Assembly (NCBI GenBank): GCA_963555755.3
Contig: OY820905.2
Coordinates: 2,464,001 to 2,528,000 of the forward strand
Length of the DNA: 64,000 nt
Origin: Nitrospirales bacterium
GTDB lineage: Bacteria > Nitrospirota > Nitrospiria > Nitrospirales > UBA8639
Direction of reading: 5' to 3'
The notes under the pieces were generated by a model, which saw only the letters and a list, made by a program, of their open reading frames with translations, was not told the origin of the DNA and searched no databases. The position numbers were made by a program, and so were the translations under genes. Shown piece after piece: positions 51,784-59,657 of this stretch (positions are counted from its first letter, which is position 1; each line of letters opens with the position of its first letter).

Positions 51784-51890
51784 ATTTATTCGTACCTCGA
51801 AAAAGAATTGTCGGTTGGGGTTGGGGGTCAAGTATTGACTTACTATATTTCTTTCGCAAGAGCCAGCCGAAAAAGGGGCAATCCTATTTA

Positions 51891-52033
51891 AGGGCACCTC
51901 TAAAAACCGTCCTTTTCCGTGAGGGCGGCGTCAGCCGCGTGCTCACATCCTCATGTATTCGCCCATACACTCCGGTTTTCCGCGCGCGGCTTCCTTGCCC
52001 TCACAAAAAATGCCGGGTTTTTAGAGGTGCCCT
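51891..52033. mobile_element. MITE family D (17-bp TIR AGGGCACCTCTAAAAAC)
   Basis: Perfect TIRs at 51891-51907 and 52017-52033, flanked by TTA/TAA. Confidence 0.8.
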
Positions 52034-52105
52034 TAATATTGCATTATGGATTTTTGGTCAATTCTCACATTCCTACTTTTTCTGCTATTCCGACACCCGA
52101 AGCAG

Positions 52106-55132: not shown

Positions 55133-55297
55133 GGGAATGTTGAAAAAGCATGCCCCCGCGGAGGCGGGGGGGCGTCAGCGGCGTTCTCGACCCTTTGTCG
55201 TGCTCACGTACTATGAGTACGCTCCGCGCGTCAAAGGGCCTGCGGCCTTTCCTTCGATAAACTCAGGACAGGACTGAGCGCACCTTTTTAACATCCC
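55133..55297. mobile_element. MITE family C copy
   Basis: TIR and core as in 33499-33620; shares extended flanks with 56607-56821. Confidence 0.8.
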
Positions 55298-56606: not shown

Positions 56607-56821
56607 GGGAATGTTGAAAAAGCATGCCCCCGCGGAGGCGGGGGGGCGTCAGCGGCGTTCCCTGCCTTCGCCGTAGCAGCTTCGCGTTTACGCACTGTAG
56701 CCGCTACAACGCGCAAGCGTGCTGGCAGGTCGGCACTTTGACGTGCTTCACGTACTAATGAGTACGCTCCGCGCGTCAAAGTGCCTGCGGCCTTGCTGAG
56801 CGCACATTTTTGATCATCCCC
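56607..56821. mobile_element. MITE family C copy with nested insert
   Basis: GGGAATGTTGAAAAAG ... TTTTTGATCATCCCC. Confidence 0.8.
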
Positions 56822-57029
56822 TGTTGTTCTAGATGAGTCACATGAGAACGGCATTGTGAAGAATTTTCAATTATTCAACGGTTCCATAATTTAACCCAAG
56901 TCCGTATCTCTGATGTCAAATGTTTTCACGGTGGAGTGAATCTGGGAGTGTGGGCTAAGGTTAGTTGAAAATTGAAGTGACTCCCTCAACTGTGGTGAGA
57001 TGGCGTTCGACCAAGAACCGACATCTTTC

Positions 57030-58801
57030 GGATCAATCGCACTTTTGGTGGAGTGGGGGTAAACGGTGAGGGGAAGAAAGGAGGGAGCATGACCGGATGG
57101 ACACCACCGATGAACGTCAGATGCTGGCCTTCTTCTTACCCGAAGGCCCCTTGGAGTATTTCGAGCTGAGTCGAGGCACGAAGACGGCCCACGCGATCCA
57201 CTTGGTACTGGAAGAGAAGAATCACCCTCCGCTGGCGGATGCGCAGCCAGGCCCACGCGTCTGGTCCAAAGGATTCCAGGACAGCACCATCACCGATTGT
57301 CCCGCCAGGGGCCGACCCGGTTCCCTCACGTTTCGCCGCCGGCGCTGGCAGGTGGAGGGCGAGCCCTCGCTTCTGACGCGCGCCATGGCTCTTCCGGCCC
57401 CCGGGACACAACTGGCGACGGAATGTGCGGCTTTTGTAAAAGCACGCGGCTGCCCACAAGCCGCGGGCCTGGGCCACGATTGCCGAGGCTCATTTCCTGG
57501 ATGCCACGGGGGTTGTGCGGCACTACCGCGAGCCTCGCAGCGACGTCCCCACGTGGGAGGCGCGCACGCATGCCGCCGCATGGCTCGTGTTTCCGGAGAA
57601 CGTGGGGAGGCACGTGCGCCTTGCTGCAGTGGCAAGCAGCCAAGGCGAGCGCGACACCGTCCTCACGAACAACGCGCGCCACGGCAAGCACGGCGCGCTG
57701 GTTGCCATCGTCAAGGGCCCCAAGACCGAGGTCGTCAGCGAGGGCTTGCGCCGGATCCCTGAATCCATACGAGAGACGGGCCAGCCCGTCACCCGCGATC
57801 TCGACGCGAGTATGGCACAGCTTGCAACGGTCTGCTTCCCGAATGCGCAGCAGAGCGAGGACCGCGTCCAGGTCCAGCAACGCGTTTCTGAAGCGTTCCA
57901 GGAAGTCCGTGTGGCCTTGCGCAAGGAGGCGATCACGGACGACAACGCCCAGGTCAAAGCGGCTCGGGAACGTGGGAGCCACTCCCAGGCCCCCCGCTAC
58001 GAGAATGGGGATACCCACAAGGCGGTACTGGCAAGCAGTCGCGACCTGTTGTTCAAGGCGAGGAGCACATGGACCGTCTCACAGCAGGAACGGGGCGCCA
58101 TGCTCTTCTGCGAGTATCCCGTGCGACAGAAAGCCTACAACCGCTCCATGATGTTCCGGGGAATCTACGAATACTGTGAGACGCAAGGCCATGCCCACGA
58201 GAAGTTGCAGGAGTGGGACAACAAACTAGGGAGCATACAGAATCTATGGTTCTATCCTACCGCCATCCAATTCTGGCCCCATGGAGTTTCTTGGCCATGG
58301 CGTTGCTTCCTGTGAGCGTTCTTGCTTGTGTCGCTGCACGATCTTCTCGTGCCCTCTTCCCACGGACCAAGGGGCTATGACGCCAGGAAGAGGCAGCATG
58401 AGATGCGGCAGCGACCTAAAAATACAAGACGACGCCATTCGCTCAAAAGGAGAGGCGACATAACCCACGAGGAGTGCCATAACTTTATGTGCACCTGATC
58501 GTATTGTGCTGCCAGAACCCTAAATTCTGCATGATCCCAAACTAGACACCTCCATTGAGATCCTGCCGGCCTGCGAGACGCCGATGCAGAGGATCAAACT
58601 CCATGAGACAACCATCTTGCACTCCTTTGATAGCCGGCGGACCACTGCCAGCGCTGAATCGTGTCATGCAAAGAGTAAGAATTTCCGTGCGCTGCAGCGA
58701 GGTGTCCGAGGGGTGCCCTTTTTCCTCTACCGCCTCGCGAAGATCTACGGCTAAGAACATGAAGGATGGTACCCTGGCTCCACCAAAATTGCGATTGATC
58801 C
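57030..58801 (+). mobile_element. Degenerate ISL3-family (ISAon1-like) insertion sequence, interrupted by a MITE
   Basis: 24-bp TIRs GGATCAATCGCA(C/A)TTTTGGTGGAG at both ends; decayed transposase motifs LEEKN, RRRRW, WLVFPEN, ENGDT, TASAES..AK.K.FR..RGV. Confidence 0.88.
58230..58537. mobile_element. ~308-bp MITE with IS256-like ends, inserted in the ISL3 transposase
   Basis: 24-bp imperfect TIR GGA(G/T)CAT(A/G)CAGAAT..; 8-bp target duplication CAAACTAG (58222-58229, 58538-58545); excision restores the reading frame. Confidence 0.85.
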
Positions 58802-59151
58802 GCTTAACACCTTGAGCAGATCATTGCGAAACGTTTTACCATACTTGGGTGGTCGACCCGAGCGGGGCTGATCCTGAAGGCCGGCTAGCCCATTCTCGAC
58901 ATAGCGTTATCGCCAATCAATGACTTTGTTGGGGTACGTGGTGAGTTCCTGAGCGATCTGTTTGACCGGTTTTCCCGCTTCGCTCTCCAAAATCATTTTC
59001 GCTCGGGCCACCGTTTGCTTGGGCAATGTTCGGCTCTTTGTCCGGTTTCGTAACGTTCTCTTGTCCTCTGGGGGGATCTCTATGGGGGGGGGCAGTTCTC
59101 GGCATAAGGCCAAAATTACATAATATAGTTTAACTTAGCAATTAAACACTA
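58802..59151 (-). pseudogene. IS630-family transposase 5' remnant
   Basis: RAKMIL...IAQEL...VIDWR*RYVENGLAGLQDQPRSGRP with an internal stop; truncated at the ISL3 right end; element end TAGTGTTTAATT. Confidence 0.8.
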
Positions 59152-59657
59152 GGACATAATCGGACACGGGCCCGAGGCAAAGTCTGACCATATTTTCAGG
59201 ATTCCGCTGATTTAAATAGAAAACCAATTTCAATATACTTCATTTCAATTTTCGGGGCGCCCGTGGTCGACGCAGAAGACAACCTGGGTGGGGTCGTAGC
59301 CAGGCGGGCTATTCTCCCAGACTATTTACCTGCGAACAGACCACGCAAGGTTTTCTAAGGGGAAACGGTCTCCCTGGTACGATCCACTTGTGGAAAAAAA
59401 TCAGAAAGGCGGACGAACTAAGGCAACTCTCCGTCTCCAAGTGAAGAGCATGATTGTGTAAGGTTCCCGAACCCCTCTGCCGCGCCTTTTTTATTGCTAT
59501 GGGGAACCCATGGTTACCGGGGTGCTGGGACTCTCAGGTGACACACCAGAGTCACTGAGAGGACGGCAGACGAAGCAGTAAAACAGCAGAAGCCGTGGGT
59601 TATGTGGTGAGGGGCAAGACGGCTTCATACAATTACATCTCTCAAAGGAGGATCATA

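Follow-up and report, generated by a model that had tools for sequence, protein, structure and literature searches.

The insertion sequence at 57030..58801 is a dead, MITE-interrupted, otherwise ordinary member of the ISAon1 family, and the A:T>C:G transversions that dominate its decay are a scar common to most mobile-element families of its genome and absent from the sampled ordinary genes. As a pattern, the confinement of this A:T>C:G process to mobile elements is supported; the changes accumulate in bursts, the copies recombine with one another, and A/C and T/G sites are homoplastic beyond expectation. The explanation that we favor, at a probability of roughly one in three, is error-prone homology-linked repair that inserts G opposite A, the change being fixed and spread by MutY, with the roles of these enzymes predicted. 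The window referred to below is the whole 64,000-nucleotide stretch that was analyzed, C1:2464001-2528000 of a 4.62-Mb genome (G000) in which ~1.08 Mb is repeated DNA.

Structure of the element and its sister copies

Without its MITE the element is ~1.46 kb long, with two overlapping frames and inverted ends that start with GG, as in the ISAon1 subgroup of ISL3 (NF049916, NF049917, PF01610). The preliminary description had recognized an ISL3 remnant, and this identification stands: frame 1 scores 74.8 bits on the ISAon1 upstream model against a cut-off of 55, ORF2 matches PF01610 (DDE_Tnp_ISL3), on which the intact homologue L053 scores 154 bits, and the inverted ends are 33 nt long and 88% complementary. 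The ISAon1 downstream model gives 233.5 bits against a cut-off of 250 with a query that is partial and mutated. That description had missed the nested MITE at 58230-58537 and the two sister copies, which are included in the following list.

57030..58801, plus strand: ISAon1-type ISL3 element, copy A (end pairing, profile models, sister copies)
57030..57061, plus strand: left terminal inverted repeat
57097..57453, plus strand: ORF1, ISAon1 N-terminal region protein; A:T>C:G accounts for 15 of its 17 non-synonymous changes
57432..57442, plus strand: T/A run at the ORF1/ORF2 overlap, likely -1 frameshift signal; T>G at 57436 breaks the run
57440..58754, plus strand: ORF2, ISL3 DDE transposase, split by the MITE; A:T>C:G accounts for 43 of its 64 non-synonymous changes
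57623..57628, plus strand: acidic Asp-Glu pair, now Ala-Ala through a pair of A>C changes common to copies A, B and D
58222..58229, plus strand: left copy of the 8-bp target duplication of the MITE (from sequence; not repeated in copy D or in homologues)
58230..58537, no strand assigned: nested MITE with ISL3-type ends, 308 bp; 17 full copies in the genome
58538..58545, plus strand: right copy of the 8-bp target duplication (from sequence; reads of copy D show the joint 58221-58538)
58770..58801, minus strand: right terminal inverted repeat
C1:2535353-2537126, minus strand: sister copy B, 98.7% identity
C1:735920-737544: sister copy D, 98% identity

The stop codon of ORF1 has become TGC through an A>C change and the frame reads through. 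Neither frame has gained a stop codon, in agreement with the earlier remark that long frames stay open. A role of the T/A run as a -1 frameshift signal is likely in view of the frame overlap in intact L053. The Asp of the altered acidic pair is a candidate catalytic residue; sediment contigs retain A at 57624 and 57627. The frameshift run and the acidic pair are thus destroyed while the ends of the element are spared, the outer 24 nt of the right terminal repeat being identical in homologues from other samples. Compared with L053, to which it is 89% identical, copy A is dead, interrupted by a MITE and transverted at 11% of its A/T sites, and its GC content is 62% against 58%.

Copy B lies 12.5 kb from copy A in inverted orientation and holds the same 308-bp MITE, and copy D, at 0.736 Mb, holds a different MITE of 168 bp. 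Taken alone, copy A is not bordered by an 8-bp target duplication. When the flanks are compared (window 57022-57029 and 58802-58809; C1:2535345-2537134), the left flank of A matches the right flank of B at 7 of 8 positions and the left flank of B matches the right flank of A at 6 of 7, implying that the two copies have probably swapped flanks, as would be expected after inversion by recombination of the 12.5 kb between them. The terminal repeat of the element is also found on a 760-bp five-copy repeat (C1:1014821-1015580 and four more) and on a 375-bp eleven-copy MITE (repeat family 37). A transposase of the same family, 92% identical, is present on a contig of 1.7 kb that was assigned to the bin of a Phycisphaerae genome (L273), which would be either cross-phylum transfer or misbinning.

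Substitution spectrum of copy A

A search with a 24-nt end pattern returned 86 metagenome stretches, of which six independent loci, together with their duplicates, spanned the greater part of the element; two more homologues came from a scan of genomes, and these outside homologues are 83-89% identical. Seven served as outgroups, and L053 is the one among them in which both frames are intact. Against the majority of the seven, copy A carries 97 changes over 526 A/T and 769 G/C ancestral sites, and 58 of them are A:T>C:G, hence the transversion of 11% of A/T sites. The remainder comprise A:T>G:C (8), A:T>T:A (0), C:G>A:T (2), C:G>T:A (21) and C:G>G:C (8). The proportion rises to 55/69 for non-synonymous changes and is 23/29 for changes since the copies split. 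Copies B and D give 61/95 and 43/77, and the outgroup tips themselves give 1/21, 6/13, 8/53, 8/60, 13/103, 7/33 and 14/71. With five outgroups the count for copy A is 60/108, divided between A>C (31) and T>G (29) and spread evenly along the element; the branch counts are 41/82 on the common stem, 16/18 on the A+B stem, 5/5 on B, 1/4 on A and 1/2 on D, with five sites that fit no tree.

Alignment to real homologues, intact L053 included, therefore bears out the enrichment and the direction of change that the preliminary description had proposed, but not its wording of almost exclusive A:T>C:G change, since the class makes up 56-60% of all changes and ~80% of decay-phase changes. Similarly, 14 of its residue examples are single A>C or T>G changes relative to the real ancestor, and two of its assumed ancestors were wrong: the Ala following FLK is already ancestral, and the ancestor has TNAAAES, where Ser results from a G>A plus a C>G change.

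A long-read artefact was considered and rejected: short-read contigs from four runs of two studies, which may include the source sample, show the same letters except for sister-copy alleles, and the ancestral A/T letters are present in sediment contigs of four other studies. The runs X1-X8 are clonal in unique DNA and yielded no spectrum of polymorphisms. Searches with the mutated ORF2 protein among longer proteins, with the element in a plasmid collection, and in 400 genomes of the phylum (at 1e-20) gave no match.

Spectrum of the backbone and of host genes

The backbone was compared in two relatives, using 61 of about 390 contigs of genome G005 (94% identical) and 42 of about 400 contigs of genome G006 (90%). 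Unique DNA aligned over 326,431 and 355,869 bases, with 39,425 bases present in all three genomes, so that only 39 kb could be polarized. Within these, A:T>C:G accounts for 30/247 changes at fourfold sites on the G000 branch (47/330 and 72/637 otherwise) and for 20/124 intergenic changes on that branch (27/211 and 46/390 otherwise), showing no genome-wide excess of the kind that a mutator would leave at neutral sites. The ratio of A:T>C:G to A:T>G:C on the G000 branch is 30:53 at fourfold sites and 20:24 in intergenic DNA, against 58:8 in copy A. Unpolarized fourfold differences to G005 are A/C or T/G in 1111 of 4809 cases.

No scarred backbone tract exceeded binomial expectation in windows of 40 differences among 16,398 + 34,004 (50,402) differences. 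Likewise, no host gene with the pattern was found among the 245 and 249 genes scored, the sole outlier being an IS, and these genes and 639 ORFs of relatives included no host pseudogene old enough to serve as a control. The sampled ordinary genes are thus without the scar, and it is not genome-wide. Replication position was rejected as a cause, the scar showing no correlation with how far an element lies from the skew minimum (rho -0.08, p=0.18).

One host gene is informative at an insertion junction. A phosphoketolase gene (L021:363-944; C1:3185862-3186443) has been cut at codon 194 by a second ISAon1 family, and no remaining part of it was found elsewhere in the genome. The truncated gene shows 1 A:T>C:G change where 12.4 would be expected with a shared dose; this lack of dose in the flank indicates that the scars of the second family predate that junction, although with ~2 changes since truncation the flank does not separate age from targeting. 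Elsewhere in the backbone, C1:1285410-1288596 and 4218918-4222104 form an identical 3187-bp inverted duplication that contains two host genes.

Other mobile-element families and host duplicates

The second ISAon1 family occupies different insertion sites with different flanks in G000, G005 and G006, and A:T>C:G makes up 31/66, 39/65 and 34/58 of its changes. Per site, A:T>C:G in this family exceeds that at fourfold sites of the same genomes (4.9% vs 2.0%, p=5e-4; 6.2% vs 3.1%, p=2e-3), whereas transitions are fewer than at fourfold sites (1.6% vs 3.3%; 0.7% vs 4.2%, p=7e-13).

Across 32 IS and group II intron families of G000, 642 of 1087 non-synonymous differences between copies are A/C or T/G, and this class outnumbers transitions in 28 of the 32. 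In 26 host duplicates, which were picked by eye and for which purifying selection is a caveat, the corresponding values are 150/539 and 2 of 26. The mobile set was drawn from 38 rows, of which four were dropped (three without changes, one a fragment of another family) and two adhesin-like repeats were moved to the host set. The family names IS256, IS30, IS1595, IS91, IS630, IS5 and intron are our assumption from protein motifs; ISL3 and IS110 were assigned otherwise. Host duplicates have an ordinary fourfold GC content of 0.58-0.62. Repeat genes as a whole are GC-richer than host genes at fourfold sites (0.78 vs 0.63), the reverse of the usual pattern.

The scar is confined to mobile repeats but does not affect all of them: many MITEs and the young families escape it, as do duplicated host genes. 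The least diverged, and thus youngest, IS copies are ordinary (14/82), large young families of 14-40 near-identical copies have almost no such change, and most short repeats are ordinary, among them the 168-bp MITE (61 copies) and families 12, 14, 15, 17 and 37, whose private spectra are ordinary though they recombine. In the nested 308-bp MITE, on the other hand, 29 of 41 variable sites are A/C or T/G and 7 are transition sites; the class makes up 23/25 shared variants versus 7/20 singletons, and little-changed parent-like copies stand side by side with scarred ones. Orthologous small repeats differ by A/C or T/G at 134/428 and 115/336 sites, against ~26% in intergenic DNA, and an orthologous insertion in another lineage has 4 A:T>C:G among 8 in-place changes. 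Outside homologues at the six tips besides L053 show a mild excess (39 non-synonymous A:T>C:G vs 14 A:T>G:C). IS110-centred loci of three other genera are mostly too young; their few cross-genome pairs, which are unpolarized, give 33-41% A/C or T/G, a hint.

Bursts, recombination and homoplasy

Accumulation of A:T>C:G changes is not clock-like. Copy D has 1 change whereas the A+B stem has 16 without a transition (p=1.4e-4; assigning the three conflicting sites to D raises this to p=1.5e-3). Of the repeat genes whose private transitions number one or none (231 in all), 204 lack any A:T>C:G change and five have 6-13, an over-dispersed distribution (mean 0.36, variance 2.19). At 2.670-2.676 Mb, three neighbouring but unrelated elements have 6, 13 and 7 A:T>C:G changes and a single transition apiece, corresponding to doses of 1.1-2.4%. 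The surrounding block, C1:2664256-2676329, consists of nested ISs between two IS91-like elements beside the GC-skew minimum (2.65 Mb), with its inner three elements scarred and the two outer ones not. The bursts are not coordinated by strand (92 of 194 neighbouring changes fall on the same strand) and clump weakly, mildly on the A+B stem (p=0.015) and at p<0.05 in 2 of 10 sets.

Recombination between copies is evident from four-gamete conflicts that increase with distance in 6 of 8 families. Three A:T>C:G sites contradict the ((A,B),D) tree. In 21 of 25 families (p=9e-4) conflict is more frequent between A/C-T/G sites than between transition sites, with the order reversed in 4; the pooled excess is modest (812/8039 vs 1011/12328). 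In the nested MITE, 29 A/C-T/G sites require 25 extra steps on the tree, against a mean of 1.1 and a maximum of 4 in 25 simulations without recombination. Over three families the extra steps are 25, 5 and 2 against simulated means of 1.1, 0.2 and 0.04, and transition sites give 0/7, 3/30 and 0/5, with just two transition sites informative in the MITE. The A/C and T/G sites are therefore far more homoplastic than the tree allows, indicating that letters pass between copies. Intrinsic hot spots do not account for this homoplasy: the scars share 8 sites with changes in outside homologues, where chance alone would give 4.9 (p=0.10).

Sequence context, repair genes and polymerases

The context of the changes is weak. 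A 5' A is raised (0.043) and a 5' G is lowest (0.023); AAA is the highest triplet (27/461), and GAC (11/554) and GAA (10/621) are among the lowest. Adenine-methylation hot spots were also considered and rejected, with no enrichment at GATC (6/170) or GANTC (3/152) relative to 247/7561. Pol IV of P. aeruginosa prefers 5'G/3'C and makes A-to-C changes with oxidized guanine nucleotides (PMC12318082), E. coli mutT prefers a 3' A (10.1101/2022.10.21.513255), and MutT mutants yield almost solely T>G (PMC10995721).

The mutT-like, mutY, mutM and mutS frames are open, and loss of any of them is rejected at the gene level. The mutT-like gene has a Nudix box, passes TIGR00586 (99.7 vs a cut-off of 97.9 bits) and is conserved in relatives, contrary to the loss of mutT that a mutator would imply; the same 135-aa protein also scores as the MutY C-terminal domain NUDIX_4, and it is thus a candidate MutT and the only one. 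It lies in a split mutY arrangement (G000:C1:1134236-1135414; L157:1216-2394), in which a 252-aa glycosylase without the C-terminal domain is followed by the 135-aa NUDIX_4/MutT-like gene; the layout is the same in G002 and G005, and G003 has a short mutY with an adjacent NUDIX gene. The proposal of a mutT-type mutator lineage in its simple form is not supported by these observations, given also the ordinary backbone spectrum and the ordinary spectra of the youngest IS copies and most MITEs.

A dinB gene and a lexA-imuB-dnaE2 cassette are present:

C1:1968315-1970941: SRAP-type gene near dinB
C1:2175889-2181632: cassette of lexA-like, imuB-like and dnaE2-like genes

The cassette labels in part, and the SRAP-type label of the gene beside dinB, are our assumption. 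No trimeric dUTPase was found in 5 of 5 genomes and no dimeric dUTPase in 21 of 21. Three UDG-family genes are present, together with a ~400-aa double Dcd-like protein at C1:2396824-2397942. No Piwi domain, as a mark of Argonaute, was found in 21 genomes.

Possible origin of the scar

In the favored explanation, the scar would arise when repeated copies recombine. Repair synthesis, for which DinB or DnaE2 is the candidate low-fidelity polymerase, would insert G (probably as 8-oxo-dG) across from A; MutY would then turn the mispair into a fixed C:G, and heteroduplex repair would hand the new C:G letters from copy to copy. MutY takes A out of G:A pairs (PMC12606429), and its action on recombination heteroduplexes has been proposed and modelled (PMC2582958). 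Conversion can propagate alleles, yet the many radical ones seen here cannot originate from it, and a raised de novo rate must therefore be assumed; we infer that the new changes are made at recombination, by 8-oxo-dG chemistry, with MutY and a low-fidelity polymerase. Of the explanations considered, only this one would account at once for a scar limited to mobile repeats whatever their chemistry, for the clean flanks, for the bursts and for the homoplasy of individual sites. Against it, the escape of host duplicates, of young families and of certain high-copy MITEs is left unexplained, the context matches neither P. aeruginosa Pol IV nor E. coli mutT, the bursts lack strand coordination and are weakly clumped, and the similar dose of the three neighbours at 2.670-2.676 Mb would fit a shared journey equally well.

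Such a journey is part of an alternative that we consider unlikely, in which elements were scarred elsewhere, in a mutT-type mutator cell or on a plasmid, phage or excised circle with a high A:T>C:G rate, and then re-entered an ordinary backbone. The near-pure A+B stem (16/18) resembles the 97% purity of mutT strains (PMC12318082), the three adjacent unrelated elements share doses of 1.1-2.4%, and the host gene cut by the second family, with 1 change versus 12.4 expected, places the scars before that junction. However, some 28 families in three species would have to be exported and re-imported repeatedly, the MITEs inside A/B and D are residents of the lineage, no scarred tract appears among 16,398 and 34,004 backbone differences, 4 of 8 in-place changes in the orthologous insertion of another lineage are A:T>C:G, and such a stay elsewhere does not by itself explain the homoplasy. 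At the other extreme, A:T>C:G might be the neutral spectrum of the whole genome, now or in the past, masked at fourfold and intergenic sites by selection or recombination. This is very improbable: selection would need to act about ten times more strongly on A:T>C:G than on A:T>G:C (30:53 and 20:24 vs 58:8), the spectra of neutral MITEs and of young IS copies are ordinary, and D and A+B are not clock-like, despite the values for orthologous small repeats (134/428 and 115/336 vs ~26% intergenic), the mild excess in outside homologues (39 vs 14 at six tips besides L053), and a control limited to 39 kb of polarized backbone with no old pseudogene among 245 and 249 genes.

Other explanations place the cause at the elements themselves. 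A dedicated RIP-like defence that inactivates mobile or repeated DNA by recognizing it and mutating its A:T pairs would account for confinement to ISs and introns of all chemistries, for the bursts, and for spared ends beside a destroyed frameshift run and acidic pair; it is nevertheless doubtful, with no candidate gene found, no Piwi domain in 21 genomes and no sharp motif, and large young families of 14-40 copies are untouched, so that the defence would be slow. A by-product of recombination and repair between copies fits the data at least as well as such a defence. Each mobilization, whether copy-out, donor-gap repair after excision, rolling circle or intron cDNA, might instead resynthesize the element outside the replisome with errors opposite A, which would be element-limited and episodic and would suit the nested MITE, where shared variants are A/C-T/G in 23/25 and singletons in 7/20 and where parent-like and scarred copies coexist; this is improbable, since families of 14-40 near-identical copies have moved often with almost no such change, strand coordination is lacking, the family 37 MITE with the element's own ends has ordinary private changes, and neighbours of different families share a dose. 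There is, finally, a slim chance that the targeting is as in the favored explanation and the chemistry another, with dUTP incorporated opposite A and excised, and the abasic site bypassed with C to yield T>G. Insertion of C opposite abasic sites is a trait of Rev1, of which no bacterial counterpart was identified here; site-wise spread is also unexplained. The absence of trimeric (5/5 genomes) and dimeric (21/21) dUTPase, the three UDG-family genes, the Dcd-like gene and the presumed SRAP-type gene beside dinB are favorable to this chemistry. The route is reported to yield T>G in mammalian cells (10.64898/2026.08.21.746158); many bacteria, on the other hand, lack dUTPase (PMC5122711).

Relation to known systems

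The scar resembles that of mutT mutators of E. coli and P. aeruginosa in the base change, its occurrence on both strands and its near-purity on some branches, but it is not genome-wide, the mutT-like gene passes TIGR00586, and there is neither a 3' A nor a 5'G/3'C preference. RIP of fungi is a one-way, burst-like change of repeated mobile DNA that inactivates it, C:G>T:A being produced by a cytosine methyltransferase-like enzyme at preferred dinucleotides. The process described here is similarly one-way, burst-like, inactivating and confined to repeated mobile DNA, whereas it is A:T>C:G, GC-raising and bacterial, has a weak context without a dinucleotide rule, spares young high-copy families and host duplicates, and has no dedicated gene that could be found. 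Diversity-generating retroelements share adenine-directed change, although they replace adenines with any other base, on a single strand and within a short stretch; here A>C (31) and T>G (29) are equal, A>T is absent (0), and the changes are spread evenly over whole elements. With MutY repair and GC-biased conversion the scar shares the A:G>C:G direction, recombining copies and over-homoplastic A/C-T/G sites; conversion, however, cannot create alleles, MutY here lacks its C-terminal domain (matched by the separate downstream gene), and A:T>G:C is not raised as a general GC bias would predict (8 vs 58; 29 A/C-T/G vs 7 transition sites in the MITE).

Insertion sequences of bacteria are thought to decay by ordinary AT- and transition-biased change or by deletion. 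Full-text literature searches, which covered few subscription papers, returned no description of IS-restricted A:T>C:G hypermutation; an ordinary family member is thus the carrier of a scar pattern for which no published description was found. The earlier suggestion of an undescribed process directed at mobile elements holds with respect to confinement, and its "directed" part, a dedicated defence, is not borne out. At somewhat less than even odds, we would describe this as a lineage with a RIP-like process: homology-dependent, one-way A:T>C:G change of repeated mobile DNA of every chemistry that inactivates its targets while adding neither stops nor frameshifts, is ratcheted from copy to copy by A:G repair of the MutY type and leaves host genes untouched. 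If true, fungal RIP would have its first counterpart in bacteria, or a side effect of 8-oxoG repair would have gone unrecognized, and transposase phylogenies, dN/dS and dating would be biased. The same genomes combine a split MutY, one MutT candidate, DinB/DnaE2 and no recognizable dUTPase.

Other repeats in the window and genome

The 14-kb C2 contig duplicates C1:4141231-4153174 at 99.98% identity, carries one IS end in addition and probably represents assembly redundancy. In the window, 51890-52036, 55170-55290 and 56640-56830 are short hairpin-rich repeats of very high contig depth (hundreds of copies in the genome and its relatives). Directly right of the element, 58802-59482 is a 681-bp duplicate of C1:1605016-1605695 with an IS630-like fragment inside.
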